From a virus (taxonomy: Duplodnaviria; Heunggongvirae; Uroviricota; Caudoviricetes): a stretch of 20,741 nucleotides of DNA. Location of the stretch: the IMG/VR virus record IMGVR_UViG_2630968533_000002. One strand, given 5' to 3'. The translations under genes and the position numbers were made by a program. Below the pieces are notes generated by a model, which was not told where the DNA came from, made no database searches, and saw nothing but the letters and a program-made list of their open reading frames with translations. This document shows, piece by piece, positions 887-20,741 of this stretch (its first letter is position 1; every line of letters starts with the position of its first letter).

Positions 887-980
887 TTGTGAGTATCTCA
901 CGTTCTCAGTGTGCTGGGCAAAAAAACATCGCAAAATCTGGAGCAGGCACGCAAAACAGAATTGAAGTTGCGGGGAAGAA

Positions 981-1011
981 AAATGCCGCTCTGTTTGAGT
1001 GGGCGGCATTT
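981..1011 (-). terminator. Intrinsic terminator hairpin (9-bp stem AAATGCCGC/GCGGCATTT) followed by U-run on minus-strand transcript
   Basis: Read directly: inverted repeat 981-989 / 1003-1011; minus-strand RNA ends with UUUUUCUU. Would stop leftward read-through from the island before the dinD promoter. Confidence 0.5.
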
Positions 1012-1320
1012 GTGAAGGCTGAAAAGTAAGAATTGGCGTTACGAGTTATTCAATTGGATCTGTTTGTAGAGTATTGGCTTCAATGCCGCATTGTAGCTGG
1101 TTTCTTCCTAATGCGATTTTTGATTATGTACACCCTTATGTACACGGTTTTTTCGGGTGCTTTGGTCAAAAGCCATTGTCTACATCGCTCACGATCGAGG
1201 TGTGTAACCCTGTTCAGGCTTGTTGTACTGCGCACGCGTATTGCTCGTGAAATTGATTGTGAGAGGTAAGTTAATCGCTATTTTTAGGAAGTGTATTTAC
1301 ATAGAATGGGGAAACGGACT

Positions 1321-1351
1321 AAAAAGCTGCCTGTATGATAGGCAGCTTTTT
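1321..1351. terminator. Bidirectional intrinsic terminator (AAAAAGCTGCC-loop-GGCAGCTTTTT)
   Basis: Read directly: perfect 11-bp inverted repeat with 9-nt loop, A5 on the 5' side and T5 on the 3' side; 18 bp downstream of the stop of the 254-aa gene. Confidence 0.65.
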
Positions 1352-1368
1352 AGGCTTACTTATTCCAT

Positions 1369-2133
1369 TTATCGCATTTGTGCTTCTTCTTCACGAATAC
1401 GCTGAATAGCATTTGCTAAACGCAATTTGGAGTTGTCATCCCAATCTTGGGTTCTTTGGCCTACTGGTGCACATGGGGTAATTGAACCACTAACCAGCAT
1501 TTGACGAACTTCAGCAACTTCTTGTGCACTGATAGAAACGTGTGGTGAATGTGGGTTTTTGGTATCCATAATCAGCCCCCTCTGCAATAGAGCTTCGTTT
1601 ACTTCGCTAATGGTTGAAACAGAGTCTTCTACTAATGATGCGTTAGTCCTGAAGTCTAAAAAACGTACAGTGCCGCCAGTGTATGGGTCAAGCTTTTTAG
1701 ATTCTTCAATTGCTGATCTTGCGCAATGGCTATACATCCAGTTTTGCGCAGCAGCACCGCATCCTGAGCCTGTAAAGACAGCGAACAGTTCTTCCGTTTC
1801 GTTATTTTTTACAACTAATTTTTGACCTTTATCAAAAATCACTTCATTAGTTGATTTTTTCACAATATGTAAATTTACCGATTGACCAGTAGGTAAAACA
1901 ACTGGTGGTTCTTGTTGAGATAGGTCTCCTCGCCACCAATGCTTCCATAACTGAATCAAAAGACCATCACCGGCTAAAAGCATAACAAAATCATTTCGTG
2001 GAGCTAGCTTACCGAAGCCGGTATCGTCAATATACAGGATATGACCATCGTAGCCATGTGGGCTAAGATCAACAGACCACCTAGAGTCGGTCGCTACTAA
2101 GGCGTTAACACGATCATATACCGTTGTAGTCAT
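1369..2133 (-). CDS. Hypothetical 254-aa protein; weak motif-level resemblance to HslV/proteasome-type Ntn-hydrolases
   Basis: Long ORF, GC lower than the dinD flank (by eye about 42%), own terminator. N-terminus MTTTV, an AGDG motif and a GSGCGAAAQ motif recall HslV (MTTIV..AGDG..GSGG.YA.AAA) from memory; not verified. Confidence 0.6.
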   Translation of the reverse strand: MTTTVYDRVNALVATDSRWSVDLSPHGYDGHILYIDDTGFGKLAPRNDFVMLLAGDGLLIQLWKHWWRGDLSQQEPPVVLPTGQSVNLHIVKKSTNEVIFDKGQKLVVKNNETEELFAVFTGSGCGAAAQNWMYSHCARSAIEESKKLDPYTGGTVRFLDFRTNASLVEDSVSTISEVNEALLQRGLIMDTKNPHSPHVSISAQEVAEVRQMLVSGSITPCAPVGQRTQDWDDNSKLRLANAIQRIREEEAQMR

Positions 2134-2302
2134 TATAGATGCTCATAAACCATTAAGGTTCAAAAACTCTATAGCAAATGTTGAAAGAAGCAAATTGATT
2201 ATACTTATTAATGCGATGTTGGGTGTCTTGATCTTTTAGCTGATGCTATGCGAAAGCAACGACAGTTTTGCTTGGTCATTGTAGTAAGACACCTCCTTTG
2301 CT

Positions 2303-2590
2303 TTATCGTAGCTGGCAATCTTTATCGCGATAACGCCTGAAGTACCCTCTCGCTTCCTCATCCATACCAAGAGCCGAATGAGTCCGCTTAACTGCCTGTC
2401 TTAAATCTCCGAATCTGTCTGTAGTTGCTGGTGGGCGTGCCGCCTTACGGATACATTCAGAGCGTCTGTTTGCTGCATGTTCACGTTCTTTATCGCCATC
2501 TGCCAGCATCATGACTTCTGCCCATCGTGCGGCAGCTCTCCGGTATAGCCCTTTTGACTCCAGCTCTTCAGCTTTCCTGTCCCTTATCAT
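2303..2590 (-). CDS. Small regulator, PerC-family-like (95 aa)
   Basis: ORF with N-terminal AEELESKGLYRRAAARW motif that I recall as typical of PerC/Pch-type activators; start lies 37-63 bp from a tandem operator array. Confidence 0.5.
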   Translation of the reverse strand: MIRDRKAEELESKGLYRRAAARWAEVMMLADGDKEREHAANRRSECIRKAARPPATTDRFGDLRQAVKRTHSALGMDEEARGYFRRYRDKDCQLR

Positions 2591-2626
2591 TTCTGCCTCT
2601 CAGATTATATAGATAAGCAAAAAGGT

Positions 2627-2747
2627 GTTGGTTCAGTTGGTTCAGTTGGTTCAATTTGTAAAGATCGTTGTTTTTATTGTGTTTTTTCAGAAATATTGAA
2701 CCAACATCAACTCATTTTGAACCAACACAGCCCAGCTCTGAACCAAC
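2627..2747. promoter_or_regulatory. Divergent promoter/operator region: GTTGGTTCA x3 in perfect tandem (2627-2653) and TGAACCAAC x3 inverted, spaced exactly 21 bp (2697, 2718, 2739)
   Basis: Read directly from sequence; AT-rich spacer between the two arrays; lies between divergently oriented regulator genes at 2590 (minus) and 2850 (plus). Confidence 0.65.
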
Positions 2748-2849: not shown

Positions 2850-3305
2850 ATGGTCTTTGCAATGAGCAAATCTAATCTGATCGCGTTCCGCATCCCATCT
2901 GAATTGCAGGATGAGTTTAATCGGTCTGTTCTCGCTTCTGGAGGAGATAAAACCTCCTGGCTTGTTGATGCGATTCGCATGAAGCTGGGACAGCCGGAAA
3001 AGTCTATTGATTCACGAATGCTTGGGCTGGTGGAGCGCATGGAAAAAGCCGCTGCGTCGCTTATTGCCGGAAAGCCGAATATCCCACCAAAGCCATATAA
3101 CGAAACGGCAGTTATAAAGATCATTGCCGATACCATCCAACAGGGATTTGATAATGGGCGTGTGATAGCTGAACGGATCAATGAAGCAGGCTATCAAACA
3201 AAAGCTGGTAAAGCGTGGGATAAAGATATTTACAGCGCGTGGAAGCGTCAGGGAAACAATGCTGAAAAGTTAAAAGCGGTGATTGATTGTAAGGTCAGCG
3301 TATAA
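2850..3305 (+). CDS. Ribbon-helix-helix (Arc/Mnt/CopG-like) DNA-binding protein with uncharacterised C-terminal domain (151 aa; possible start at 2862)
   Basis: N-terminal LIAFRIPSELQDEF...SWLVDAIRMKL fits a beta-strand plus two-helix RHH pattern; preceded by palindromic elements at 2801-2834 (TATAAC..GTTATA, ATACAG..CTGTAT). Confidence 0.55.
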   Translation: MVFAMSKSNLIAFRIPSELQDEFNRSVLASGGDKTSWLVDAIRMKLGQPEKSIDSRMLGLVERMEKAAASLIAGKPNIPPKPYNETAVIKIIADTIQQGFDNGRVIAERINEAGYQTKAGKAWDKDIYSAWKRQGNNAEKLKAVIDCKVSV

Positions 3306-3384: not shown

Positions 3385-3585
3385 ATGAAAGGCAGAACGC
3401 CACACATTGAACATCAAGCCAACCACTTCTCGGATGTTCGCAATGAGATGATTGCCATTCGCGGTGATATGCACGGAATGGAGCGTCGCCTAGCAGATAA
3501 GATGGACGAGAATCAGAAGTGGATCATCGTCCTGTTGATTTTATCAATTCTTATCCCGCTACTTATCGCATTGGTCACAAAATGA
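3385..3585 (+). CDS. Small C-terminally anchored membrane protein (66 aa)
   Basis: GGTGAGGA Shine-Dalgarno 8 nt upstream of ATG; hydrophilic N-terminus followed by one hydrophobic helix WIIVLLILSILIPLLIALV at the C-terminus. Confidence 0.5.
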   Translation: MKGRTPHIEHQANHFSDVRNEMIAIRGDMHGMERRLADKMDENQKWIIVLLILSILIPLLIALVTK

Positions 3586-3613: not shown

Positions 3614-3996
3614 CGCGCGCGTACTTGTCGCAAAATATCAGGCAAAGGCCAGATTCAGAAAGTCGTGATAACCACCAGCACAACATGAGATGTCATGTAA
3701 CGCGATTTATCACACCAGATACATGTGATTGGTGTACCCGCATAAAACATTGTCATAGCGCGTCCTGTGCGCATATACGCCGATAATCAACACATCACCA
3801 CCACTCTGTCTCATGTAGAGAACACTTTTATGGTATCCCCCGCCATCGTGCGCGTACTAGTCGGACGCAGTTGCAAAACTTTTTGCAACTGATACCCCTC
3901 GCGCGCGTACTTGTCTCGAAATTGGTGTTTTGCTGTGGCAGTGATATCAGAAAAATCTTCCTGTTTCACATAAAGCGGATATGCGCGTACTGTAAC
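3614..3996. repeat. Iteron-like array: four copies of GCGCGTACT(N)GT, including a perfect 16-bp direct repeat CGCGCGCGTACTTGTC at 3614-3629 and 3900-3915; perfect palindrome CAGTTGCAAAA-CT-TTTTGCAACTG at 3868-3891
   Basis: Read directly; occupies the intergenic region between the 66-aa gene and the membrane-protein gene. The ORF-track ORF 3595-3786 overlaps it and is probably not coding. Confidence 0.6.
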
Positions 3997-4107: not shown

Positions 4108-4722
4108 GTGAGCAGAAAAGATACTAAAGAATTGCTAACTATCTGCATGGTGTACTTTTCAATTTATTTTTGTGCATACATGATAGTCCCAGATGAGTTT
4201 GAACATGGCAGTATTATTTATTCCATAACATTCTATTTTTTAGAGCTAACACCAATTTTGGCTATCCTTTTGGCAATACATATTTATTTTTCCTTAAAAA
4301 AAGAATCGACTAATTGGGAGAAGGTATGGAGAGACAGAGGATTTCTAACATCACCTAAAGATGATGCATATGAGAGTGATTTTTCTGACTTTATAACAAA
4401 CTACTACTCCAGCGAACAATTCAAAAATAGACTGTCTGATGTTTGGGAAACAGCAATGTATTCTATAGGGATTATATTATTGATACTTACTGGTATTGCT
4501 CAATATGTTTTTAACATTGACTTATCATTAAATCCTGAAAATTTAATATCGCCATTGATTTTTGGTGAGATATTGATCTTCTCATTCGGAATTTTCTTGA
4601 GTGTTGTTCTCTGCTCATTATGCAAGCTACTGACTAACAGGTATCCGGGTGAAGCAAGGAGAGCAAGAAAGGCAAATCCATATTATCTTTTATTTCCTAA
4701 TGGAGACAGCAGAGATATCTAA
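4108..4722 (+). CDS. Polytopic inner-membrane protein (204 aa, GTG start), very low GC; candidate superinfection-exclusion or abortive-infection protein
   Basis: AAAGGGGG Shine-Dalgarno 6 nt upstream of GTG; about six hydrophobic helices with a roughly 70-aa charged loop; AT-rich codons (by eye near 30% GC) against a roughly 50% background; convergent with the 701-aa gene. Confidence 0.6.
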   Translation: MSRKDTKELLTICMVYFSIYFCAYMIVPDEFEHGSIIYSITFYFLELTPILAILLAIHIYFSLKKESTNWEKVWRDRGFLTSPKDDAYESDFSDFITNYYSSEQFKNRLSDVWETAMYSIGIILLILTGIAQYVFNIDLSLNPENLISPLIFGEILIFSFGIFLSVVLCSLCKLLTNRYPGEARRARKANPYYLLFPNGDSRDI

Positions 4723-4741: not shown

Positions 4742-6847
4742 TTATTGAGCTTCTTTTTGTGATGCCTGTGCGACTCTGGTGAGCGATTGTGTGACCGTAC
4801 TGATCGCTCTGTCATATGCTGTGCTACCTTTTGGCGTATTTGCCAGACGTAACAAGGCATTTCGTATAACAGGGCTTTCGTATGCCTTCGCTGCTCCGCC
4901 TACGGCACCAGCAGCAGGAACAACAAACGCAGCCGTTTTTAGCATCCCCGCTAATACTGCTGCGTTTATGATGCCACCACCAACTAACAATCCATAAAGC
5001 TGCTGACCATTTAAGTTTTGAACGTTCGCTTTTGCCGCGTGTCTTGTATCGTTGAGGTATTTAATAACGCCGTCCAGTTCCTTTCCATGTACGCCTTTAA
5101 AGAAAGTTGCTGATTGCTTCCTGTTCCGGTGTAACGCATTAATAAACTTTTCAACACTAATATTTCCAGACGGATCAGTCGCCTTATCTACAGCATTCTG
5201 AACTATGGCTGCTCGTGCGTTTTGCCTACCATTGTCATCCAGAAGCCTGTAAAGCTGAGAACGTTCTGATGGGCTTTGGCTAAAAACGAGTTTTGTTACA
5301 TCCTCAGGCGTGGCCTTGCCGCTGGCTATTGCCTTTTGAACGCGCGTTCTTCCCATCATGTCATTGAATTTAGACCATGAGCGATCAACCCTTGCCATAT
5401 TAATGGCTTCGTCTGCTCCAAGATTTTTGGCTACGGCTTTTTTCATATCCGCCGTATATGCCTTGTAGATAATATCGCTGGCTTTCTGGAGCGTATCTTT
5501 ATCAACAGTGTCAGATGACGCCATAAATCTCTTTCGAAGATCGGTTCTGTTTTCCCTCGCCAGACGCAGGTCATTTGGTCCGCTGGTGATATCGTCTTTA
5601 AATTGCTGCAAGACTTTTACCGCGGCTCTATCCTGAGATTTGCCCGGGCGGCTTAACACGGCAATCTGATTGTCGATAGCTTTTACCGTGTTTGAGAGAT
5701 CGACAGGGGTATCCCCCATAGCGTCAATTATGCGGTTATATCGCTTTCCTGCTGCCTCAATGAATTTTTGTTGCCCTTTAGTCGCAGATTCATAAAGCTG
5801 TTTATCAGAAATGCCACCCAGACCATCGCTAAATGTTCTGACTAAATTTTCTCGTGCTTGTTGTTGATTCAGCCGATTCTTACCGGTTCCAAAAAAAGGA
5901 ACTCTTTCGCCTAATGTCTGAGCCTGACTCTGCATAAAGGTTTTATCTTTCAGCATGTCACTGGTCATTAACGGCAGATTTCTTTCCGATGCAAAGTCGA
6001 CAGCAGCCTTTGCTTCAGGCGACATATCACCACGAACAGCCCTCGAAACCGCACTCGCTGTATTTTCCAGCCCCTTACCAATACCACCAATGCCAGCAGA
6101 AATTACCGTTTGTAACGGATCAATACCTTCTCCACCAGCAAGGCTGGTGGCTCCCTGTAGTGCTAAATCTGTAGCTGCTGATTTTCCTATGGCACCAAGC
6201 ACCGTTCCAGCCCTGCCCGCTGGTGTAAACGCCAGCGCATTAGCCAGAAACGATGCCACGTCTTGCGGCGATAAACCCGGCTTGTTCAGAGCATAATCAC
6301 CGGATGGCAGGGAAACGATAGTGTTACCCTTCTCATCCTGCCTTAATTTCGCTCCCATGCTCTGAAGAATCTTTTCCTGAGATGCGTCAGAGCCGAAAAG
6401 TTGAGACCATCGAGCTTTTAGAGCATCCATGCTGAGTGAGGTTAACTCTGGGGCAAGGTCGACATTTTGCAGTCTCTCCATCTCTGGAGTCATTCGGCTT
6501 TCGCCTGTTATAGCATCGCGCATCGCAGCCCCAAGACTGGCTCCCTGTTCTGCTGAACGCTCAAGCCCCTCTCTTTGCTGAGTAGCTAACTTTGCATACC
6601 CTGACGCAAGAGAATTATCAGATGATGTATGTTGAATATTTTGAGTTGCTGATTGGGCTCGGTCTATTTCATTCGTTGATGGTAGTGGATAGGCAGCATA
6701 AAAAGCCTGCTTAGCCTGTGCTACACTTTCTCCGGCTTGCGGGGCAACGACTTCATTGAAGTATTGCTCCTGAGCCTGCGCTTTTTGTTCTGGTGCTAAC
6801 GCCTGATACTGTGGAGAGGCGATAACATCTTTCCATGCTTTAGCCAT
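4742..6847 (-). CDS. 701-aa Ala/Gln/Gly-rich protein with hydrophobic Gly-rich C-terminus; P22 gp16-like ejection (DNA-transfer) protein candidate
   Basis: Long ORF, start overlaps upstream stop; composition and position as last gene of the 153/225/473/701 series; similarity to gp16 inferred from size, order and composition only. Confidence 0.7.
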   Translation of the reverse strand: MAKAWKDVIASPQYQALAPEQKAQAQEQYFNEVVAPQAGESVAQAKQAFYAAYPLPSTNEIDRAQSATQNIQHTSSDNSLASGYAKLATQQREGLERSAEQGASLGAAMRDAITGESRMTPEMERLQNVDLAPELTSLSMDALKARWSQLFGSDASQEKILQSMGAKLRQDEKGNTIVSLPSGDYALNKPGLSPQDVASFLANALAFTPAGRAGTVLGAIGKSAATDLALQGATSLAGGEGIDPLQTVISAGIGGIGKGLENTASAVSRAVRGDMSPEAKAAVDFASERNLPLMTSDMLKDKTFMQSQAQTLGERVPFFGTGKNRLNQQQARENLVRTFSDGLGGISDKQLYESATKGQQKFIEAAGKRYNRIIDAMGDTPVDLSNTVKAIDNQIAVLSRPGKSQDRAAVKVLQQFKDDITSGPNDLRLARENRTDLRKRFMASSDTVDKDTLQKASDIIYKAYTADMKKAVAKNLGADEAINMARVDRSWSKFNDMMGRTRVQKAIASGKATPEDVTKLVFSQSPSERSQLYRLLDDNGRQNARAAIVQNAVDKATDPSGNISVEKFINALHRNRKQSATFFKGVHGKELDGVIKYLNDTRHAAKANVQNLNGQQLYGLLVGGGIINAAVLAGMLKTAAFVVPAAGAVGGAAKAYESPVIRNALLRLANTPKGSTAYDRAISTVTQSLTRVAQASQKEAQ

Positions 6848-8268
6848 TAATCACCCCATAGTGAAGAAAAATTACTGCTGGCTGCTGGCTGTGATACCTG
6901 CTCAGATTGCGGCAATGTCTGCGACGAAGAAGAAGTTCCTCTGTCAACTGCTGAAATAACCCGCAAAGCATCATAAGCTCGACCAGAAGCAGCTTTCAGC
7001 GAATTGAACTGGTTTTCCATCTTCCTACGCTTGGTATCAATGGTTTTTGTGGAATCACCAGGCTGAGGGAAATACATTTGATAATATTTGGACATTTCAG
7101 CTGGTAGGATAGATGCCCCTGTTTCCTGACGGAGTATTGCCATTATTGCGTCATTAGCATTAACAACGTATTGCTGCTCTGTTGGGCTGAGCGTTAAGTT
7201 AGCCAGCGTCCCATTACCCAAAGCATTATTAATGATCGCCACTCGCTGTGGGCTAAGCTGGTCTTTCAGTGTATCTATTGAATCAAGAGCATCCCTAACT
7301 CTGTATGCAAATCCAGCAGCTTTTTTAGCCCCTTCTGGCGACTTTTCCATGATCTTTTGGGCTGTTGGCAAAGCTATTGGACGAAACCCATCTCCAGATA
7401 TTGGCTGGTTTAGTTTTCCCTGCTCTTCACTTCCGTCTGTGTAGTATTTTGTGACAGTGCCATCATCGTTTTCTCTAACACTCATTAATTTTTTGGCGTT
7501 TGTATTAATTCCAGCCGCTGCCGCAAATGCCGCAGCCCCCTCTGGATCCGCCTTTAACATTTGCGCGTACTGATTGTAATTCTGCATTGCGGCTGTTGGT
7601 GCATATGCTGACGTTAACGCATTTGCTCGGCTAATATCCTGCCCTCTCGCCTGAAGTGCTTCTCCAGCCTGATTGCTGCGGATTGTCTCTGCCAACTTGC
7701 CACGCTCAATATCCCGACCTTCCATTCGATCTTTGATATCGAAGTACTTCTCATGACCGAGAGAAAACAGTGCCATACTACCAGCAAGCCGCTGGAATCC
7801 CTGTGGATCATTAACATGCATTTCGGCAACAGACTCAGGAGAAATCCCCAAGCGACGCATTTCATCTTCGTTATCTGCTATGAATTTTCCAAATGCCCCA
7901 GTTCCGAGCGAAGATGCGATTTGAGCACTAGTCGCAAGATGACCAATAGAATTTCTCTGGTCGTCATCAATAAAGCCCATCCCTTTCTGAACGCTTTCAA
8001 ATTCTTCTGGATACTCAGAAATAAGACTGCGCATTTTGTTTCTGTCTCCAGACTCAAAAGCCCCGGCATATGCTTTCTGAAACTCTGCTTTACGCTGTTG
8101 TTGACGTGCCTGCTGATTAATCTCAGCAACGCCTCTTATCCCCTGTAGCGCCATTAAACCTACGTTTGGCTGCTGCTGATACTGCACAGGCTGAGGAACG
8201 GAAGAACGAGGAGCATTATCATTTTGCGGTGCCATGCTAGGCAGCCCGCCAAGTTGCCATGTCGCCAT
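6847..8268 (-). CDS. 473-aa protein; P22 gp20-like ejection protein candidate
   Basis: Long ORF translationally coupled to both neighbours; size close to P22 gp20 (about 471 aa, from memory). Confidence 0.7.
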   Translation of the reverse strand: MATWQLGGLPSMAPQNDNAPRSSVPQPVQYQQQPNVGLMALQGIRGVAEINQQARQQQRKAEFQKAYAGAFESGDRNKMRSLISEYPEEFESVQKGMGFIDDDQRNSIGHLATSAQIASSLGTGAFGKFIADNEDEMRRLGISPESVAEMHVNDPQGFQRLAGSMALFSLGHEKYFDIKDRMEGRDIERGKLAETIRSNQAGEALQARGQDISRANALTSAYAPTAAMQNYNQYAQMLKADPEGAAAFAAAAGINTNAKKLMSVRENDDGTVTKYYTDGSEEQGKLNQPISGDGFRPIALPTAQKIMEKSPEGAKKAAGFAYRVRDALDSIDTLKDQLSPQRVAIINNALGNGTLANLTLSPTEQQYVVNANDAIMAILRQETGASILPAEMSKYYQMYFPQPGDSTKTIDTKRRKMENQFNSLKAASGRAYDALRVISAVDRGTSSSSQTLPQSEQVSQPAASSNFSSLWGD

Positions 8269-13669: not shown

Positions 13670-14024
13670 CGTACCCCACGTGGTCTATAGCGTTTGCGAT
13701 ATGGCTAACCAGCATCTGCCACTTGGTTATTCCGTAATCAGTCAGCATGCCATCATTGTTTAGCCACATATCAAATTCAGCGGTTGTCGCAAGTTTCCAC
13801 TTATCGCCGTGGACAGTCCTCATTGCTGGGTACATGAATGCGCAAATCAGATCACAAACATCTGACGGCTTCAGAGATGTAGTAATGGTGCGTCCCTCTG
13901 GCGTCTGAATTGCCATTTTCTCTTCACCAGTAGAATGAAGGTTATGAATCCACACAGCGCCAGCAATCTTTGCCACCTGCTCTCCGATTGCGGAGCTAAG
14001 CGCCATTTCTGCATTTTCACGCAT
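13653..14024 (-). CDS. Hypothetical small protein (123 aa; alternative start at 14006)
   Basis: ORF in the same-strand chain, overlapping both neighbours. Confidence 0.5.
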   Translation of the reverse strand: MRENAEMALSSAIGEQVAKIAGAVWIHNLHSTGEEKMAIQTPEGRTITTSLKPSDVCDLICAFMYPAMRTVHGDKWKLATTAEFDMWLNNDGMLTDYGITKWQMLVSHIANAIDHVGYGDAKH

Positions 14025-14358
14025 GAGAACCTCCCGCTACAGTTGCGCCCATGTCATTAACCATGCTTTGCCATATCTCATGCCCGACGTCAGTCAATCC
14101 GTCCTTAGTGACGCAACGATCAAGAAGCTCTATCCCCACGGTTTCCCACTGCGGGTAGAACACTTTCATGGCTGCCAGTGCGTAACTATCGATCAGGCTG
14201 CGAACGCCTTTTACTCCATTGACGATTTCCACACGGACGGCCTCTCCGTCCGCATCAATCATGAAATAGTCCCCGCCGCTGGTGGAGGTAATGTGGTTAT
14301 ACAGTGCTGACGCATACTTATTTGCCAGCGCATTCAGTCGGAAATTTTTAGTAATCAT
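14017..14358 (-). CDS. Hypothetical small protein (113 aa)
   Basis: ORF in the same-strand chain; no family recognised. Confidence 0.5.
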   Translation of the reverse strand: MITKNFRLNALANKYASALYNHITSTSGGDYFMIDADGEAVRVEIVNGVKGVRSLIDSYALAAMKVFYPQWETVGIELLDRCVTKDGLTDVGHEIWQSMVNDMGATVAGGSHA

Positions 14359-14368
14359 GGCTCCATCC

Positions 14369-14971
14369 TCAGTGCGTCACTGGTTCCGCTGGCATGCCGT
14401 TTTCATTCAGTTCAGCTATAAAGCTGTTGTGAAGTTCAGCAAGCGTTTCACGACCAAATGGAGTCAGTGCTCCTTGTTCCACATCCATCATGGCTCTGTA
14501 GAAAATGATGGCGCGTTCTGTGCCAGACTCGATGCCAAAACGTTCTATCATCGCGCCCTCAATGTTGTTTGCCATAGCGAGGCGCTCTGCTACTGGATAC
14601 AGCGGCATGGCGACGATGCCGTTGGAATAAACAGCCACTTCGGAAGGATTGCCAGTATCATCAATGATGCTGACAGTGCCGTTTTCCTCTCTCATTTCCA
14701 GCATGAATACTGTTGCGATCAGCCATCTCCACATAATGACGTTATGCTGTGATGTGTAATCGAAATATCCCTGGTTGCCGCCATCGGCAATAGCGAGATG
14801 TATTGACATACCTTCATCTGGTTTATCGTCATAATCCCCGGCATCCAGACGATTTACGGCATCAATATATGAAACGGCCTCAACGCGTTCTGTCATGCCA
14901 TCGTTGCTGCGGTACGCGATGTTTACGCCGTCAGGCGTTGCTTCTGCATGGAACGTTAAGAAATTATTCAT
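14369..14971 (-). CDS. Hypothetical acidic protein (200 aa from MNNFLTF; the ORF track extends it to 15076)
   Basis: ATG at 14971 overlaps the upstream stop in an ATGAATAA arrangement with an AGGCG Shine-Dalgarno-like sequence; preferred over the longer ORF for that reason. Confidence 0.5.
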   Translation of the reverse strand: MNNFLTFHAEATPDGVNIAYRSNDGMTERVEAVSYIDAVNRLDAGDYDDKPDEGMSIHLAIADGGNQGYFDYTSQHNVIMWRWLIATVFMLEMREENGTVSIIDDTGNPSEVAVYSNGIVAMPLYPVAERLAMANNIEGAMIERFGIESGTERAIIFYRAMMDVEQGALTPFGRETLAELHNSFIAELNENGMPAEPVTH

Positions 14972-15185
14972 GTTTCGCCTCGCCTGAATGATTCTGTAAC
15001 TCATATTTGCCCAACAATTCGTCTGCTTCCTGAATAGCTTCTGGTACGCCATTGAGCAGTGACATAACCGCGCCAATCATTAACTTGTCTCTGTTGCTGG
15101 GGCTGGCCCCTTCAAGCCAGAACCCTAAAACAGTCTGAACCTGTTCGATGCGACATTGCGCTTCAATGAGCTGGATGTTGGTCAT
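14964..15185 (-). CDS. Hypothetical small protein (73 aa)
   Basis: ORF whose start overlaps the upstream stop (ATGA). Confidence 0.45.
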   Translation of the reverse strand: MTNIQLIEAQCRIEQVQTVLGFWLEGASPSNRDKLMIGAVMSLLNGVPEAIQEADELLGKYELQNHSGEAKHE

Positions 15186-15445
15186 TTCGCACTCTCCACA
15201 TCGATTAAACTGATATCTATCAGGGAGGTAACTTTTTGTAGCCAGCTATTGATTACTGTCGCCTGTTCCCCTCCCACAGAGGGAATAATCTCATTCATCA
15301 CATGAACCAGACCTGTGCGCGCTCTGGTAAGCCGTTCAGTCGCGCAATCTGCGGGAGTGAATGTGTCTGGATATGGCTCTTCACGCCCCAGCAATGATTC
15401 AATTTCCAGCTCACACGGATGACGATAAATTAAGTTGATATTCAT
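15182..15445 (-). CDS. Hypothetical small protein (87 aa)
   Basis: ORF whose start overlaps the upstream stop (ATGA). Confidence 0.45.
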   Translation of the reverse strand: MNINLIYRHPCELEIESLLGREEPYPDTFTPADCATERLTRARTGLVHVMNEIIPSVGGEQATVINSWLQKVTSLIDISLIDVESAK

Positions 15446-15636
15446 TTTTCACCCCCAAGAATTACCAGCTCGGCACGGGCATCGTTAACCAAAGATGAGC
15501 ACGCTTTAATCGCATCCACGACATCAGCAGCGTCCATTTCTTCAGCTGAAAGACTGACAGCAACCAGGACAGCCGCTGCTTGCTCGATTAATTGAAGTGC
15601 GGACGTAAGGCGAGGGGTATTAATTGAGTTATTCAT
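15442..15636 (-). CDS. Hypothetical small protein (64 aa from MNNSIN)
   Basis: Internal ATG at 15636 with G-rich Shine-Dalgarno-like sequence, overlapping the upstream stop (ATGAATAA). Confidence 0.4.
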   Translation of the reverse strand: MNNSINTPRLTSALQLIEQAAAVLVAVSLSAEEMDAADVVDAIKACSSLVNDARAELVILGGEK

Positions 15637-16657
15637 TGGTTGCCCCCGTTTTTCCTGGCATTTCGCCACCTTCCAGCAGGAAATGAACGTCACGAACGGC
15701 GAGATCCAATATCGCGAGTAACGCCTTCAGTCTTTCGTCTCGTGAGGGAGAGTTGCTCACCAGAATGTCGTTAATCACTTCTGTCAGTGTGATGATCTGG
15801 CTTGTGCGTTCGAGGGGATCCATATGCACATCGTAGGTTTTAATCATGTGCCACCTCCATGCGGATACGACCAGCAAAAAAGCAGACGTGATCGCGCACC
15901 AGAGAACGGCGAGCATCGCGTTCAGACTCGGCAGCAATATGATGAATTTTGGCGGTAATTGTCGGGCAATCGCGGCGAACTGCGGCGATAATCCAGATAA
16001 ATTGCGGTTTTTGGGTAGGGGTAGTAGCCAGCATGTGGCAGCCTCCTTGATTGATGGTTTATAGCCACCGCCCAAGAGACCAATCTTGCTGGCGGTGGAC
16101 TGTACGGAGTTGGCCTTACTGGCAATCAAGGAAACCAGCCTACCCGAAGGTAGCCCCATACAGCCCACCATTGATAAGGTGTGCGTGTGCGCCGATACAA
16201 AAAAAGACGCTGGCGCGTCATGTATCGCCTCGATTGTCAGCGGGAGGCCAATCCCGGCACCCGTTTTATGAGGTGCCTTATAACCATAAACCGTGTTGCC
16301 GCATAACGGCAAGCTCTTTTTTATGGACTCCGAAAACTCACTATTGGAAGCACCAGATGCACAATACATCGCGCTCATTTCGTTAACGTCGCGAGTGTGG
16401 ACGAAGGTTTTTGTGGAGTCACTACGCGAGCAGAGAAAGCCATCTACGACCAGAAATTCTCTGGCGCTGCCGCTGACCTTCTCAACGCTAACATCATCGA
16501 CCGTAATTTCTGACATAGTTAAGGCATCCGCTCCTACCACCAGTAAATGATAAACTTTGCTTGTATCTGCTGTATTAATGCCTGACTTTGACGCCATATT
16601 GCTGGATTTTGGCGACATGCCAGCCAGTGAAAATATCTTCTTCTGGACGGGTATCAT
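15629..16657 (-). CDS. 342-codon ORF, Ser/Leu-rich; the C-terminal 72 codons (15629-15847) may be a separate gene; a second ORF is embedded out of frame at 15840-16034
   Basis: Start ATG at 16657 overlaps the TGA of the upstream 59-aa gene (ATGA); internal MIKTYD start at 15847 has a GGAGGTGG Shine-Dalgarno; true gene structure is uncertain. Confidence 0.4.
15840..16034 (-). CDS. 64-aa ORF, possibly Icd-like (host cell-division inhibitor family), embedded out of frame in the 342-codon ORF
   Basis: Canonical AAGGAGG Shine-Dalgarno 7 nt upstream of ATG; [10 protein letters not shown]...[14 protein letters not shown] motif loosely recalls Icd-like proteins of P4-type elements (memory only). Confidence 0.4.
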   Translation of the reverse strand: MLATTPTQKPQFIWIIAAVRRDCPTITAKIHHIAAESERDARRSLVRDHVCFFAGRIRMEVAHD

Positions 16658-16833
16658 TGGTTAACCTCTGCAAACTCCTTCATGAAACGCGCCAGCGGTT
16701 GTACGCATGGCGATTGATACCCGTCGCGATAAAACGTCACTCGGTTGTGAGACACGCTTTCGACAGTAACGAGTGCTCCGTGGGCATCTTTGTAGCGTTT
16801 TTGAGGTTGTGGTGTTCCTGTTGGCTTAGACAT
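16654..16833 (-). CDS. Small conserved prophage protein (59 aa, DUF4222-like); the ORF track gives a longer version to 16920
   Basis: ATG at 16833 with GGAGG Shine-Dalgarno 6 nt upstream, overlapping the stop of the antirepressor-like gene; family assignment from memory, low certainty. Confidence 0.45.
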   Translation of the reverse strand: MSKPTGTPQPQKRYKDAHGALVTVESVSHNRVTFYRDGYQSPCVQPLARFMKEFAEVNQ

Positions 16834-17659
16834 TGACCGCCTCCAGACGCTTGGCGAGCCAGCGTTGCGACAGGCGGGTGAGTTCTCCTTTGCGCTGCTC
16901 ATATTCCATGCCCATATCAATTAACGTGATATTGGTGCTTTCGAGATATGAGAGGTGCTCAAGTTGTTCTGCGTTCATATGGTCGCGAGGTTCGCCAGAA
17001 TAGCCATTTATCCGCGCCCACTGCTTAGCAGTTAGCCCACCAAGAACGATACGAGAAATCATATTGCTCTCGTTTGTGTAGTGGTGTTGCTGCGTCGTTT
17101 TCCCCTGCTCGGCACGGGCCATATTCAGCGCATCGCACATTGGCTTAAAGTTGTTTGCGGCACTGATACGGGCTTTTAGCTGGCGACGATAGCGGGCGGC
17201 GATTTCAGGCACGCTACGCTGTAATTCTTCCTCGCACTGGATGAAATAACGACGGATAGCGCGACCCTGATCATTGCGTTCGATCATTGCCAGTTCTTTC
17301 GCCATTCCGACACTTAACAGATAGTCTTTGCCGGGTCTGCCAGACTGCTTAATCTTGCTGTAAGCCGCGCCATTCGGGCTTTTCCCCAAATTTGGGGAAA
17401 TTGTTTTATGGACTGAGTAATCGTGCCCAATGGTGAAGTCATATTCAGAGATGCGATCAGTGATCCATGTAGAGAAGTCTTTTCCCACGCCCAACGCTTT
17501 GTGTAACGCTTTTGCGCTAACAATATTGGTTTCACGCCCACCGATATGACCAGGAATAACCGGGACAATTGCGGCAAATTCATTACCGTTAATTGTGCCC
17601 AGAGAGGCGTTCAGATGAGGGGCGGCCTCAGAAATTAATCTGCTTTTTTCGATGTTCAT
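16826..17659 (-). CDS. Phage antirepressor-like protein (Ant/KilAC-type), 277 aa
   Basis: Motif LLSVGMAKELAMIERNDQGRAIRRYFIQCEEE matches my memory of the conserved Ant/KilA-C domain core; not verified by search. Confidence 0.5.
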   Translation of the reverse strand: MNIEKSRLISEAAPHLNASLGTINGNEFAAIVPVIPGHIGGRETNIVSAKALHKALGVGKDFSTWITDRISEYDFTIGHDYSVHKTISPNLGKSPNGAAYSKIKQSGRPGKDYLLSVGMAKELAMIERNDQGRAIRRYFIQCEEELQRSVPEIAARYRRQLKARISAANNFKPMCDALNMARAEQGKTTQQHHYTNESNMISRIVLGGLTAKQWARINGYSGEPRDHMNAEQLEHLSYLESTNITLIDMGMEYEQRKGELTRLSQRWLAKRLEAVNV

Positions 17660-17671: not shown

Positions 17672-18103
17672 TTAGGCGGCGTTAAACGCGTCCGGGTAGA
17701 GTTTCAGAATGTCGGCAATTTCCTGCTGAGAAAGTCCGTTGTGATCATTTATGCTCGCAAGATGGTTAACATGAGTGATCACTTTCAGAACATCACCACG
17801 GCAGGAGAAACGGTAGCGAAGGTGTGTTCCGATACCATCAGGATTCTTTTCGTCGATACGCTCCAGAGTGATTCCAAGCTGGCGTTCTAACTCTGTTGCA
17901 TAGTTACGACCAGAAGACAGACGACAGTAGCGAAGAATGTCATTTTCTGTCCATCCCTCTATACCAGTACGCAGCATATAGACTCTGGCACGATGCTTTT
18001 TCGGTGTGCGCTTTGGTGCTTGAAGGGATTTTGTAAGGGGCGTAACATCAGATACGCGAATATCTGAATTAGCCGCCTGTAATGGGCGGTTTTTCTTTTC
18101 CAT
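17672..18103 (-). CDS. Hypothetical basic protein (143 aa)
   Basis: ORF immediately downstream of alpA with its start overlapping the alpA stop; no family recognised. Confidence 0.5.
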   Translation of the reverse strand: MEKKNRPLQAANSDIRVSDVTPLTKSLQAPKRTPKKHRARVYMLRTGIEGWTENDILRYCRLSSGRNYATELERQLGITLERIDEKNPDGIGTHLRYRFSCRGDVLKVITHVNHLASINDHNGLSQQEIADILKLYPDAFNAA

Positions 18104-18306
18104 CAGACCACCTTCCCGCGGCGTTCTGCCAGCCAGTTGTGAATCTCAACCGCATCAAACGCAGTTATTTTTTCTCCCAGCTTTACCGGACGTGGTAGTG
18201 AACCGTTTCTTACTTTACGGTCGATGGTGGATACACTAACGCCCAGCAATTCAGCCAGGCGGAAGCGTCTGATATAGCCTTTTGTAGGAATAGTGTCGGT
18301 GTTCAT
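18103..18306 (-). CDS. alpA: AlpA-family excisionase/transcriptional regulator (67 aa)
   Basis: Small basic protein with helix-turn-helix LAELLGVSVSTIDRKVRNGSLPRPVKLGEKITAF..EIHNWL, typical of AlpA/Vis-type proteins; sits one gene away from the integrase as in CP4-57-type elements. Confidence 0.7.
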   Translation of the reverse strand: MNTDTIPTKGYIRRFRLAELLGVSVSTIDRKVRNGSLPRPVKLGEKITAFDAVEIHNWLAERRGKVV

Positions 18307-18381
18307 GCTTCCCGTAACCTCTTAGCGATAGTTGTTGCTTCGTTACGGGAGGAAGTATCTGTACATATATGAACAATAAAA

Positions 18382-18405
18382 AGGCACAGTAATGATACTG
18401 TGCCT
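18382..18405 (-). terminator. Intrinsic terminator hairpin (10-bp stem AGGCACAGTA/TACTGTGCCT, 4-nt loop) with U-rich tail on the minus strand
   Basis: Read directly; 16 bp downstream of the stop of the 321-aa gene and upstream of alpA. Confidence 0.55.
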
Positions 18406-18420
18406 GAATAGTTAGCTACT

Positions 18421-19386
18421 CTACCCCTTACCGTTGGCGGCAGCACGTAAGTGTCTCAAAATCACATCTTCATTTGTGATTGCTAACGGTGGAATTTCGT
18501 CTTTATGAGCCACTATGCAATCCCGCCACTTCTCAGGGCTTATTTCTTTCTTTTTGCCACGGCATTCATCAGGATACTTTGACAAAAGATATATTGCTGA
18601 TTTGAAAAGTTTTTCCCTGTTTTCAGCATGTCTCTCGGCATTATGGTTGCTATTTTTTATTTCAGGTATTAGTTCCTGTTCTACCGCCATTTCGTATCGT
18701 TTTTTGCTCTTAGCTGCGTCAAAACTTCCATTAACCTTTGCGTCGTGAAGGTATTCTAAATCAGCCTTTGTTATATAAATGTTTTTATCTGACAGGCTAC
18801 TCAGGTGAATCTGGGAACTTTGCATTTTGAATTTATATAGATCACAATCAAATGTTGCTTCAAGTCGCACATATGGCTCTCCACATTCTTGTGAATGATA
18901 ATGTCGTTTTGTACTACCGCGTACACGCAACAATCCACATGCAATTGATTTTCTTACAATAAAAGAGTTTTTGCCAATTTGTTCAAAAACATTTTTATTG
19001 TCTCTGTCTTCAACTGTCAGTGGTTTATGTGCATAAAATAGCTCATAAGCACCGCTTTCAGATGCTGGGATATAAACTTCGTTGCTTGCGCTGGTAATAA
19101 GAAAAGGAAATGTAAACCTTACTTCTTCTGGGTACATAAGTAATAAATCAGTTATAAAATCAGCATCTTTTTTGAAGTGGATGGTGGCATCAGCTTCAAT
19201 GAAATCAAGAAAGTCAGCATAGACATAAAAGTCTATATGTAGTCTATCTTTCCAATGCCATATATCATCAATTTCACAATTTAATAATTTTGATGCTCGC
19301 TCTATCGTGCAGTAGTCCAAAGGTGGAATACCTGATTCCTGCCATAAATTTCTATGCACCGCAGTTGTTTCATGAGAGTCGTTCAT
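18421..19386 (-). CDS. Orphan AT-rich 321-aa protein of unknown function (cargo gene between int and alpA)
   Basis: Long ORF with AAAGGTGA Shine-Dalgarno-like sequence; GC clearly below neighbours (by eye about 37%); own terminator; no recognisable domain. Confidence 0.65.
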   Translation of the reverse strand: MNDSHETTAVHRNLWQESGIPPLDYCTIERASKLLNCEIDDIWHWKDRLHIDFYVYADFLDFIEADATIHFKKDADFITDLLLMYPEEVRFTFPFLITSASNEVYIPASESGAYELFYAHKPLTVEDRDNKNVFEQIGKNSFIVRKSIACGLLRVRGSTKRHYHSQECGEPYVRLEATFDCDLYKFKMQSSQIHLSSLSDKNIYITKADLEYLHDAKVNGSFDAAKSKKRYEMAVEQELIPEIKNSNHNAERHAENREKLFKSAIYLLSKYPDECRGKKKEISPEKWRDCIVAHKDEIPPLAITNEDVILRHLRAAANGKG

Positions 19387-19481
19387 TGCGTCACCTTTTA
19401 CGCTGCGCCTTATTTTGTGATTGAGCCAGGCGGTAAGGCTTCCCGCTTTTCGCCCCGTCGAGCTAGGCTCAATCTATTCAG

Positions 19482-20741
19482 TTAGTTCGCCCTTCTGAGA
19501 GGCGTTACGTTGTAGTCTTTTCCGCTTTCCAGTGCCACCAGCAGATCAGCCCACTGTGCCAGTGCTGCTTTACGCTCATTAAAATACTGATGGCGGTTAT
19601 AAATCCCCTCTACGCCCTTAATGCGATGATTGAGGCATCGTTCCGCCACAACAGGATCAACACCCAACGCTGCTAAATGAGTACGTGCGGTGCGTCGGAA
19701 GTCGTGAATCGTGAAATTAGGCACATCCGGCATTTCGGCGCGAACCTTAGCCAGTGCTACGGGTAAAGTGCTTTCCTGAATATGTGGGATCATTCTGTTT
19801 TGCATCTTCCTGGCTGGAAGCACCCATGCGCTATTACATGAAAAGGTGTGTAGCTCTCTCAACCATTCAACGGCTGGAGAAGGTAGAGGTATATCAATAG
19901 GGTCCCCGTTTTTGCTGCGTTCTTCCGGCAAATGCCATACAGCACTATCTAAATCAAACTCTTCCCATCGTGCGGCGCATAACTCCATCTTACGAACGCA
20001 TAGTGCCAGCAATAGCTTAAATGTCAGTTCGTTTTGGCGGCTGAATCCTTTTGCGGTGCGCATAGCCTCGAATAGCCTGATAAGCTCATCGCGAGTTAGC
20101 CAACGGTCGCGGGAAACCTCTTTACCACCAGCATCAGATACTTCAAACGCTGAACAAGGGTTTATCTCCAGAGCATGGCGTTTTATCCCATAGTCAAAGA
20201 TACGGCGTGTCCAGCGTAATACATCTGTTGCTATCGTTGGTGCTCCTCGGTCAACGATACCTTTCAACATGTCGTCAATGTGGCGTGGCTTAACGTCCTC
20301 CACCTTCATATGCCCAATGCAGGGGTTAATATCCTTATCAATTCTCCGGCGAAGGATATCGGGATGTTTCCATCTCGGAAGTATCTGGCGCTCGAAGTAT
20401 TCGGAGGCCAGATCTGAAACACGCATGGCGTTTTTCTCAGCCTCCATTTTTGCCAGTGCTTCAGCTTTTCGTTCCTGTTTCTCTGCTGCTACGTCATAGC
20501 CAAGAGCAACTCTGGCTGACAGCTCTTTTGCTGTTTCTCTGGCTTTTGATAGTGACAGTTCGGAGTAAGAGCCTATAACCATAGCCCGCTGCTTTCCTGC
20601 GAGCTTATAGCGGAATCGCCAGAACGGGACTGTGTAGTTTTTGGGGTAGCAAATATAAAGGCCGTTGCCGTCTGCCTTGCCATCAAATCTGTCTCCCGCC
20701 TTTATCCATGCGCGGATCTGCATATCTGTGAGTTTTGGCAT
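19482..20741 (-). CDS. int: Tyrosine site-specific integrase, P4/CP4-57 (IntA) family; complete, ATG at the last bases of the window
   Basis: N-terminal PKLTD...WRFRY aligns with the N-terminus of IntA-type integrases from memory; C-terminal HDFRRT and GIYNRHQY catalytic His-x-x-Arg / Tyr motifs. Confidence 0.9.
   Translation of the reverse strand: MPKLTDMQIRAWIKAGDRFDGKADGNGLYICYPKNYTVPFWRFRYKLAGKQRAMVIGSYSELSLSKARETAKELSARVALGYDVAAEKQERKAEALAKMEAEKNAMRVSDLASEYFERQILPRWKHPDILRRRIDKDINPCIGHMKVEDVKPRHIDDMLKGIVDRGAPTIATDVLRWTRRIFDYGIKRHALEINPCSAFEVSDAGGKEVSRDRWLTRDELIRLFEAMRTAKGFSRQNELTFKLLLALCVRKMELCAARWEEFDLDSAVWHLPEERSKNGDPIDIPLPSPAVEWLRELHTFSCNSAWVLPARKMQNRMIPHIQESTLPVALAKVRAEMPDVPNFTIHDFRRTARTHLAALGVDPVVAERCLNHRIKGVEGIYNRHQYFNERKAALAQWADLLVALESGKDYNVTPLRRAN

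Follow-up and report, generated by a model that had tools for sequence, protein, structure and literature searches.

A probable EcCIMP1-family satellite in Escherichia coli ECONIH1 combines a P4/CP4-57-like backbone with a P22-like ejection cassette and a terS/pac fragment

Gene content and boundaries of the element

The DNA analysed here, referred to as the window (20,741 nucleotides; IMG/VR record IMGVR_UViG_2630968533_000002), belongs to the chromosome of E. coli ECONIH1 (NZ_CP009859.1, positions 4281536-4302276, reverse strand). It covers an integrated element of 19,884 bp except for the final ~190 bp, which include the right junction and lie just outside the window. Genes of the right half are all on the minus strand and follow the order int, int-alpA RNA, cargo, alpA, a gene for a protein of 143 amino acids (aa), AntA, DUF4222, isrK and C4 RNAs, icd, small genes, primase-helicase, and iterons. 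The left half carries homologues of genes 14, 7, 20, and 16 of phage P22 and a SieA-like gene convergent on them. A short fragment of a P22-type small-terminase gene (terS) that starts at the pac site lies within the right half. Gene content was checked with Pfam and PHROG profile scans, RNAs with Rfam, and defence systems with PADLOC. A preliminary description of this sequence had likened the right half to P4, CP4-57, and phage-inducible chromosomal islands (PICIs), and the profile searches confirmed int, alpA, the AntA antirepressor, the primase-helicase, and the iterons.

The locus was taken with 12 kb of flank on each side (ECONIH1 locus L001, 44.7 kb). The flanks are core genes, ligB, yicG, and dinD on the left and yicC, rph, and pyrE on the right, just past the window end; dinD and yicC are adjacent in K-12, which has the empty site. 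The K-12 intergenic region aligned to the ECONIH1 locus in two collinear blocks that overlap by 9 nt, so the insertion is a single one of 19,884 bp, reaching from window position ~1046/1055 to ~20929/20938. The junctions and the repeats next to the left one are:

1046..1054, no strand: left junction, 9-bp direct repeat TTATTCAAT (K-12 empty-site alignment)
20930-20938 in window-equivalent positions, past the window: right junction, 9-bp repeat TTATTCGAT, overlapping the yicC stop codon (K-12 empty-site alignment)
1125..1145, plus strand: two tandem TATGTACAC repeats, probable integrase arm-type sites (repeat count)

Judged from this alignment, the window holds one single element, inserted once at the 3' end of yicC. 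Its size agrees with the ~20 kb estimated in the preliminary description, which had placed the element beside dinD rather than at a tRNA. There is indeed no tRNA in the window, but the target is the yicC 3' end, and dinD is merely the neighbour on the opposite side. Extension past position 20741, proposed as a way to find the attachment (att) site and direct repeats, yielded the 9-bp pair with its right copy at the yicC stop. Five copies of the 9-mer TATGTACAC exist in the 44.7-kb locus (0.17 expected by chance), all at the element ends, with the three further copies upstream of int (L001 32770-32821). These repeats are probably the integrase arm-type sites of one attP.

Relationship to EcCIMP1 and sister elements

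The closest described relative is EcCIMP1, a PICI of 19,963 bp at tRNA-Thr in E. coli MP1 (Pick, Stadel & Raivio, ISME J 2025, PMC11773190; GenBank OR778291). EcCIMP1 circularises only when the P22-like prophage Kapi1 is present and requires its own int and alpA: helper induction switches on alpA, and AlpA and Int excise the whole ~20-kb unit (PMC11773190). It is transduced by Kapi1 at extremely low frequency, causes no drop in Kapi1 titres, and adds superinfection immunity against Kapi1, although it contains no known defence system and the exclusion effect required the prophage too (PMC11773190). EcCIMP1 clusters apart from E. coli and Shigella PICIs, and the integrase is listed as variable among EcCIMP1-like elements; lacking capsid-morphogenesis and terminase genes, it would be a 'Type C' PICI under the scheme of de Sousa et al. 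(PMC11773190). The experimental evidence on excision and transduction concerns EcCIMP1 only (PMC11773190), and the element described here is known from its sequence.

The MP1 locus is collinear with the window. Sixteen proteins are 92-100% identical in aa sequence and occur in the same order, including the 143-aa, AntA, DUF4222, Icd-like, six small, 53-aa, gp14-like, and gp7-like proteins, and the N-terminal half of the primase is 85% identical. EcCIMP1 also shares the terS/pac fragment, the GCGCGTACT repeats, and a PerC-family gene near the left end. The two elements differ in integrase (29% identical) and att site (tRNA-Thr in EcCIMP1, the yicC 3' end here). They also differ in AlpA (33% identical) and in the C-terminus of the primase, which is of DUF927 type and accompanied by TGAACCAAC iterons in EcCIMP1 but of DUF5906 type with GGTAYAGGT iterons here. 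The gp20 allele of EcCIMP1 diverges after ~160 nt, and its gp16 allele is unrelated (a 906-aa SLT-domain protein versus 701 aa here). Where the window has the SieA-like gene and a probable ribbon-helix-helix (RHH) gene, EcCIMP1 has a 232-aa gene and a Xis-like alpA_1, and the genes for the 76-, 245-, 321-, and 254-aa proteins are extra in the window. The window thus probably holds one integrated satellite of the EcCIMP1 family, of PICI type and dependent on helpers that are P22-like podoviruses (Lederbergvirus). The mosaic of a P4/CP4-57-like backbone and a P22-like arm recognised in the preliminary description is supported by profile hits and synteny; this architecture has already been published as EcCIMP1, however, and the element is not a new kind. 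The whole-element comparison with P22-like prophages and P4-like satellites suggested there recovered the homologies of both the backbone and the P22 module, with EcCIMP1 as the collinear relative.

Sister elements show further combinations of these parts. The UPEC132 element has the gp20 and gp16 alleles of the window together with an EcCIMP1-type integrase and sits at tRNA-Thr. The ETEC1721 copy is the window's element at dinD/yicC, with an Abi-family gene (L032 4080-5042) in place of the 66-aa gene and with the 254-aa gene missing. A circular record of 12,152 bp, labelled 'plasmid' in an E. coli assembly from chicken (NZ_CP148430.1; L011), has the same backbone with PerC joined to int, and its ejection cassette is mostly deleted, the leftover being a truncated pseudogene; this circle may be a replicating or excised form of the satellite. 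Relatives of the backbone in Kosakonia, Enterobacter, and Cedecea contain neither the terS fragment nor the 14-7-20-16 set. The Cedecea davisae element (L009 14560-18958) encodes a homologue of the P4 'Beta protein', and in it a homologue of the 53-aa protein is followed by a single 584-aa SLT-domain protein, which replaces the four-gene cassette, and then by an RHH homologue. The 584-aa protein may be a reduced or alternative injection module.

A P22-like ejection cassette next to a SieA-like gene

The left half had been described as parallel to genes 14, 7, 20, and 16 of P22, with a convergent membrane protein at the position of sieA. Both points are borne out by profile and P22 protein matches to the following genes:

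8939..9400, minus strand: gene-14-like protein (DUF2824), 153 aa; PF11039 E=7.4e-62; 83% to the Kapi1 homologue, 23% to P22 gp14
8268..8945, minus strand: gp7-like ejection protein, 225 aa; PF25688 E=6.6e-73; 55% to P22 gp7
6847..8268, minus strand: gp20-like ejection protein (Inj_translocase), 473 aa; PF16928 E=1.1e-57; 37% to P22 gp20; ratio of nonsynonymous to synonymous substitution rates (dN/dS) 0.11
4742..6847, minus strand: gp16-like ejection protein, 701 aa; phrog_770 E=1.7e-161; 30% to P22 gp16 over 482 aa; dN/dS 0.14 versus UPEC132
4108..4722, plus strand: SieA-like multi-pass membrane protein, 204 aa, convergent on the gp16-like gene; phrog_7745 E=4.4e-4; 29% over 108 aa to P22 SieA, E=2e-6
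9417..9578, minus strand: 53-aa satellite-specific protein ahead of the cassette; 100% identical in EcCIMP1

The homologues of genes 14, 7, 20, and 16 stand in P22 order and are reciprocal best matches, such that the best match of each P22 protein is its positional counterpart. The SieA-like protein combines homology to SieA, albeit with modest scores, with multi-pass topology (four to five hydrophobic segments) and a gene convergent on gene 16. The 53-aa protein is the size of Arc and by eye has a strand-helix-helix-like pattern; it may be a small RHH regulator.

All four cassette genes are intact, and their dN/dS between satellite copies (0.07-0.14) is as low as that of backbone genes. The satellite-specific junction between the 53-aa gene and the gp14-like gene is found in 258 genomes, ~5% of complete E. 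coli genomes. The gp14-like and gp7-like proteins are ~99% identical between satellites and 55-85% identical to phage versions. Farther into the cassette, satellites carry different gp20 alleles from ~160 nt onwards, and one gp16 is exchanged for another. No sequenced phage in the collection has this gp16 allele or the SieA-like gene (best match 67.7% nt identity), so the exchange partners are unsampled; the exception is a ~180-nt stretch at the gp20/gp16 junction that is 95% identical and common to many phages. The 600 bp upstream of the cassette have no phage match, and neither a borrowed late promoter nor a qut site was identified there. A tblastn search of EcCIMP1 with the SieA-like protein of the window gave no match, and a 232-aa hypothetical gene follows the gp16-like gene of that element.

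The two halves differ in evolutionary origin, the backbone occurs without the cassette in relatives from other genera, and the gp16 and gp20 alleles are swapped independently of the backbone. These observations would suit a P4/CP4-57-like island that happens to lie beside the decayed right arm of an unrelated P22-like prophage. Two such neighbours are nevertheless extremely improbable: the comparison with K-12 shows one insertion and a single direct-repeat pair, the integrase arm repeats are at both outer ends and none is internal, and the same composite occurs at another att site, tRNA-Thr. Moreover, the excised form of EcCIMP1 is a single circle of 19,963 bp, purifying selection acts on the cassette genes, none of which is broken, and the pac fragment sits within the backbone half. 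The concern, raised with the preliminary description, that this might be two adjacent elements is thereby answered. The other concern, that the window is an internal piece of a complete prophage, does not hold either, as the flanks are core genes and there is no further prophage.

A terS fragment of P22 type beginning at the pac site

A tblastn match of the long 'ash' open reading frame (ORF) described below to the antisense strand of P22 gene 3 revealed the fragment:

16403..16509, plus strand: 107 nt of a P22-type small-terminase gene, from the pac site onwards (22-mer 16403-16424); 94/107 nt (88%) identical to P22 nt 4-110, gapless

The annotated pac site of P22, a 22-bp site inside gene 3, is nt 4-25, and the homology begins at its first base. 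The same 107 nt are matched within the small-terminase genes of 117 phage records. The 22-mer, GAAGGTTTTTGTGGAGTCACTA, is identical in all 22 positions, and the region in 105/111 nt, to the terS allele of three IMG/VR contigs (L017, L022, and L024), which encode full gp3 and gp2 homologues, and of a complete P22-like prophage in the ST131 strain MB1159. Maier et al. deduced a 17-position pattern from pseudo-pac sites that function in P22, and the 22-mer agrees with it at 16 of these positions (PMC10996546).

The fragment is present in EcCIMP1 and in every E. coli sister element examined. Of 5,426 complete E. coli genomes, ~484 (~9%) have it within a satellite context, with 90-100% identity; ~200 further E. 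coli genomes match the 107 nt only inside prophage genes for a 'DNA-packaging protein'. Satellite variants differ at 15 of the 107 positions, one of them in the 22-mer and 14 in the next 85 nt, and nine of the 15 are third-codon positions of terS. This clustering outside the 22-mer and at third-codon positions suggests renewal of the fragment by phage alleles instead of drift at its present site. As it stands 7 kb away from the ejection cassette and runs in the opposite direction, it was acquired separately. This copy of terS/pac was previously unreported, and the paper on EcCIMP1 is silent on a pac site (PMC11773190).

P22-type terS/terL prophages are carried by 252 genomes, and ETEC1721 has both the satellite and a complete P22-like prophage. 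The MB1159 TerS (L033 1224-1712) has the sequence of P22 gp3 outside one mosaic patch (residues ~69-102) covering the pac position, and ~17 E. coli records match it at >=99%; this TerS may be a distinct pac-specificity allele. The ejection proteins of the MB1159 and ETEC1721 prophages are no closer to those of the satellite (30-54%), which gives no link between the pac allele and the ejection alleles.

Two iteron families and the array between PerC and RHH

Three repeat clusters bear on replication:

11183..11285, no strand: proximal GGTAYAGGT cluster, six copies, just 3' of the primase gene (repeat search)
10079..10174, no strand: distal GGTAYAGGT cluster, three copies (repeat search)
2627..2747, no strand: six exact TGAACCAAC repeats between the PerC and RHH genes, a tandem minus-strand trio and a plus-strand trio spaced by 21 bp (repeat search)

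GGTAYAGGT occurs nine times in the window, in the two clusters downstream of the primase, with 0.15 copies expected by chance, and the proximal cluster is the probable ori. Among the fetched loci, GGTAYAGGT clusters occur only with primases of DUF5906 type. In nine sister loci, the same 3+3 array of TGAACCAAC lies directly downstream of DUF927-type primases, and an additional TGAACCAAC array stands beside PerC in three of these: EcCIMP1, one IMG/VR contig, and the 12-kb circle. Iteron type thus co-varies with the C-terminal type of the primase. The P4 record likewise annotates type-1 repeats both in crr by alpha and in the distant ori.

The preliminary description had read the TGAACCAAC repeats as an operator array. 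They do have divergent regulator genes on either side, three of the copies keep a 21-bp phase, and a separate palindromic stretch (2800-2835) covers the likely RHH promoter region, as might be expected of the operators of an mnt/arc-like switch. Because an identical 3+3 array adjoins DUF927-type primases in nine loci, with a second copy beside PerC in three, an arrangement that mirrors P4 ori/crr, the repeats are most likely a Rep-binding cluster of replication iterons of the P4 ori/crr type. That iteron type tracks the primase C-terminus, that PerC is not an Arc homologue, and that Rfam found no sar-like RNA also argue against operators, which we consider improbable. The array beside PerC in the window would then be an orphan crr-like cluster that lost its cognate Rep when the primase C-terminus and ori were swapped.

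Left-end regulators, repeats, and optional genes

Four genes and a repeat region make up the rest of the left end:

2862..3305, plus strand: 147-aa protein with a probable N-terminal RHH, at the Mnt position; hhalign residues 6-50 versus 7-51, P=5e-4, probability 31%; blastp versus Mnt E=0.044
2303..2590, minus strand: PerC-family regulator, divergent from the RHH gene; PF06069 E=2.6e-33; 54% to EcCIMP1_025
1369..2133, minus strand: 254-aa HslV-like (Ntn-hydrolase) peptidase homologue, optional cargo; phrog_1040 E=2.8e-13; no Pfam or PADLOC match
3385..3585, plus strand: 66-aa protein with one C-terminal transmembrane segment, in a variable slot (Abi-family gene in ETEC1721); phrog_6324
3617..3991, plus strand: four GCGCGTACT(TGTC) repeats within the 520 bp of non-coding DNA that separate the 66-aa and SieA-like genes (repeat search)

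The preliminary description compared the two divergent regulators with mnt and arc. The weak profile alignment of the 147-aa protein is suggestive of an Mnt-like RHH regulator but is not proof; the second regulator is of the PerC family, not Arc, and there is no sar RNA. The PerC homologue of EcCIMP1 represses LEE1 (PMC11773190). Blastp found no homologues of arc or ant next to the mnt position and Rfam no sar, and the AntA gene is 14 kb away in the backbone. The 254-aa gene, which had been placed where ant would be, is HslV-like rather than Ant-like and is absent from the near-identical ETEC1721 copy. For the 147-, 254-, 66-, and 53-aa proteins, neither a relaxed-threshold Pfam search nor a PDB sequence search returned a match. 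Single-sequence AlphaFold2 models of the 147-aa and 254-aa proteins (predicted local distance difference test scores of 42 and 35) were unusable and were not used. In the P22-like prophage of ETEC1721, a ClpP-like protease gene (L031 31843-32379) lies by the Arc and Mnt genes, comparable to the satellite's HslV-like gene near the RHH gene; genes for proteases thus turn up repeatedly in this region.

Sister elements conserve the GCGCGTACT repeats (L002 14111-14487; L032 5425-5799), and the Kosakonia and Enterobacter relatives have further copies in their C4-RNA region. Fourteen nucleotides of the unit recur in the Kapi1 terS (nt 18875-18892; E ~0.14), by chance or perhaps as a second pac-like signal. 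When IMG/VR was scanned with a 15-mer, mostly unrelated genes encoding 'DKYA' came up. Pairing of the C4-like and isrK-like RNAs with the GCGCGTACT region was considered and rejected, the duplex energies being no better than those of shuffled targets.

Backbone genes, RNAs, and cargo

The backbone has the following features, from the right end:

19482..20741, minus strand: P4/CP4-57-type tyrosine integrase with the yicC 3' end as its target, Arm-DNA-bind_3 and Phage_integrase; 25% to P4 Int, 29% to EcCIMP1 Int
19407..19473, minus strand: int-alpA RNA motif; RF02996, 60.6 bits (gathering threshold 35.8)
18421..19386, minus strand: 321-aa cargo gene in the variable int-alpA slot; no family match but a weak PDC-S31
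18103-18306, minus strand: AlpA-family regulator/excisionase; PF05930; AlpA role shown for EcCIMP1
17672..18306, minus strand: 143-aa conserved protein together with AlpA (profile scan, EcCIMP1 comparison)
16826-17659, minus strand: AntA/AntB antirepressor (profile scan)
16654..17659, minus strand: DUF4222 protein together with AntA/AntB; phrog_5817 E=1e-37
16200-16276, minus strand: isrK-like RNA; Rfam 65 bits (gathering threshold 50)
16088-16175, minus strand: C4 antisense RNA; Rfam 79.2 bits (gathering threshold 45)
15840..16034, minus strand: Icd-like ORF, 64 aa; 100% identical to the EcCIMP1 Icd-like protein
13653..15636, minus strand: six small backbone genes (123, 113, 200, 73, 87, and 64 aa); 92-100% identical to EcCIMP1
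11315..13666, minus strand: primase-helicase, 783 aa, with Zn_Ribbon_Prim, Toprim_3, and DUF5906 (SF3-type NTPase) (profile scan)
10181..11138, minus strand: 245-aa and 76-aa genes between the iteron clusters, missing from EcCIMP1 (profile/EcCIMP1 comparison)

The N-terminal half of the primase is 32% identical to P4 alpha, and the AntA/AntB antirepressor is a candidate for derepressing the helper. By Rfam matches and position, the backbone has a predicted P1/P4-type immunity unit of C4 RNA and icd upstream of the replication genes, which presumably works like P1 c4-icd or P4 CI.

A 342-aa ORF annotated in RefSeq as an 'ash family protein' (window 15629-16657, minus strand) shares its DNA with four features read in different frames or from the opposite strand: the Icd-like ORF, both RNAs (C4 and isrK), and the terS/pac fragment. 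The part matched by Pfam Ash (residues 124-219) coincides exactly with these two RNAs. The ORF is broken in EcCIMP1, and the terS third-codon positions at which the fragment varies are first positions of this ORF. Given these overlaps, the breakage, and the codon-position pattern, it is probably not a gene.

PADLOC found no defence systems apart from the one weak PDC-S31 match of the 321-aa protein. Gene content differs among near-identical copies in three slots, which look like cargo or defence hotspots: the 66-aa gene versus the Abi-family gene, the HslV-like gene present or absent, and the int-alpA genes, with DUF6387 in this last slot in UPEC132.

Outside the element, a reverse-transcriptase family gene (retron-like; L001 35641-36600) lies between pyrE and slmA in ECONIH1. 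The dinD region (window 1-1054) is 97% identical to parts of two Campylobacter phage records (MG065686.1 and MG065691.1; A18a and A11a), which looks like E. coli DNA in the A18a and A11a assemblies.

A possible route through P22-like helpers, and the alternatives

In the mechanism that we propose, the primase-helicase would fire the GGTAYAGGT iteron origin and give rise to concatemers. The small terminase of a P22-type helper would recognise the borrowed pac copy and start headful packaging into full-size helper capsids. Because two element copies (39.8 kb) amount to about one helper genome (Kapi1, 39,436 bp; P22, 41,724 bp), no capsid-size redirection would be needed. The satellite's own gp14/7/20/16 set would be loaded into the transducing particles, and the divergent gp16 and gp20 alleles might let these enter lysogens that exclude helper virions, since gp16 and gp20 determine sensitivity to SieA: escape mutations from SieA map to both (Leavitt et al. 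2024, PMC10883804). The SieA-like protein would shield the carrier cell from P22-like superinfection. Satellites of this family would then hijack P22-like phages in a way undescribed elsewhere, with no capsid remodelling, a borrowed ~107-nt pac, an injection set of their own, evasion of SieA, and the door closed behind them by their own SieA-like protein; the allele switching would be the trace of an arms race between exclusion and anti-exclusion. If so, particles would reach helper lysogens, the cells in which the satellite can later be mobilised. We put this hijacking and anti-exclusion scheme forward tentatively and regard it, as a whole, as rather unlikely.

As to packaging, we lean towards the fragment being a putative packaging signal of the satellite. 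Several observations weigh against that. Only 16 of the 22 positions of the 22-mer agree with canonical P22 pac, one position of the pseudo-pac pattern is not matched, and half of the sister elements (variant B) have a T at the conserved AAG. The co-resident prophage of ETEC1721 has the canonical P22 pac and not the satellite allele, and a genome search found no P22-type terS in ECONIH1. Kapi1, the sole proven helper, has an unrelated TerS without a match to the fragment, so some transfer occurs without the pac fragment. The six differences from canonical pac, the altered AAG, the position of the fragment within a long annotated ORF, and transduction by Kapi1 would all suit a non-functional recombination scar, with packaging through generalised or low-specificity headful initiation or through the GCGCGTACT repeats. 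A scar, however, would hardly begin where this fragment does (at the first pac base by comparison with the 117 phages, 4 nt upstream by comparison with the closest allele), persist at 90-100% identity in ~484 genomes away from the other phage-derived module and in the opposite orientation, and match a natural terS allele in 22/22 positions. The uneven distribution of the variant positions suggests renewal, and the extremely low transfer by Kapi1, which its non-matching TerS could explain, is what a non-cognate terminase should give. We therefore hold the scar to be somewhat unlikely.

For the cassette, the alternative is that its proteins stay out of particles and act in the carrier cell, as decoy or partner of SieA-like exclusion or by interfering with helper virion assembly. 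The immunity that EcCIMP1 adds against Kapi1 with no known defence system, and the adjacency of the SieA-like gene to the cassette, speak for a role in the carrier. What makes it a poor bet is the complete 14-7-20-16 set in phage order and under purifying selection, including a homologue of the assembly-associated gene 14, together with helper titres that EcCIMP1 does not reduce. EcCIMP1 also shows the immunity with no tblastn match to the SieA-like protein and with a 232-aa gene after its gp16-like gene, which speaks against our hypothesis, too, that the SieA-like protein underlies carrier-cell immunity. Against the proposed mechanism also stand the gp14 junction, kept by only about half of the family (258 versus 484 genomes), the 12-kb relative that lost the cassette yet persists, and the lack, in the phage collection, of a source for the gp16 allele and the SieA-like gene.

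Significance

The family is common, with the pac region in satellite context in ~9% and the cassette junction in ~5% of complete E. coli genomes. The sole experimental study left the packaging route unexplained and recorded very low transfer with the one helper tested. The pac fragment predicts that efficient helpers are P22-like phages with a matching central patch in TerS, such as the MB1159-type prophage. The ejection set beside a SieA-like gene is a candidate mechanism for the unexplained superinfection immunity of EcCIMP1, and the cassette raises the idea of a satellite that bypasses helper-encoded exclusion. The co-variation of iterons and primase C-termini offers natural module swaps for the study of origin specificity. 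Beyond the preliminary description and the EcCIMP1 paper, the pac-site fragment and the match of the array to the DUF927-type iteron set are new; the value of the locus lies in this fragment, the complete 14-7-20-16-SieA module, and the iteron/primase co-variation.

Comparison with known systems

Pfam and PHROG scans and tblastn against P4 found no capsid, portal, terminase, tail, tailspike, lysis, or sid/delta/psu genes in the window. The preliminary description was therefore right that the tailspike is absent and that P4 sid/delta/psu and capsid-redirection genes are missing. A complete P22-like prophage can likewise be dismissed: terminase, portal, scaffold, coat, gp4/10/26, and tailspike are all absent from the window.

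The element resembles P4 in its P4-type integrase (25% identical), AlpA/Vis (35%), and alpha-type primase domain (32%; all tblastn), in a C4/CI-type immunity RNA upstream of the replication genes (Rfam 79.2 bits), and in two separated iteron clusters like ori and crr, and the antirepressor-type gene is the presumed analogue of epsilon. It differs in having no homologues of sid, delta, psu, epsilon, cII, gop, or beta (by tblastn against P4 and, for the first four, Pfam and PHROG). Its helpers would be P22-like podoviruses rather than P2-like myoviruses, with probable pac/headful packaging instead of the cos packaging of P4.

With Gram-negative PICIs of the EcCICFT073 and EcCIEDL933 type, the element shares the backbone of int, alpA, and primase/rep with an adjacent iteron origin, site-specific integration, and the absence of capsid, tail, and lysis genes; helper-induced alpA has been shown for EcCIMP1. 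At ~20 kb it is longer than relatives of the EcCIMP1 backbone without the cassette, such as the 12,152-bp circle. Instead of the PICI packaging module of capsid-morphogenesis and terminase genes, of which none was found in the window, it has a borrowed terS/pac DNA fragment and four genes for virion-internal ejection proteins and an assembly factor.

Compared with the end of the P22 late operon and immI (14-7-20-16-sieA-orf59a-mnt / arc-ant-9), identities are only 23-55%, PerC-family and HslV-like genes stand in place of arc, ant, sar RNA, and the tailspike, and the intergenic repeats are iteron-like rather than Oarc/Omnt-like. The arrangement is otherwise that of P22: homologues of 14, 7, 20, 16, and sieA in the same order and orientations, after which a small gene takes the place of orf59a and a probable RHH gene that of mnt, with a region of divergent promoters next to it.

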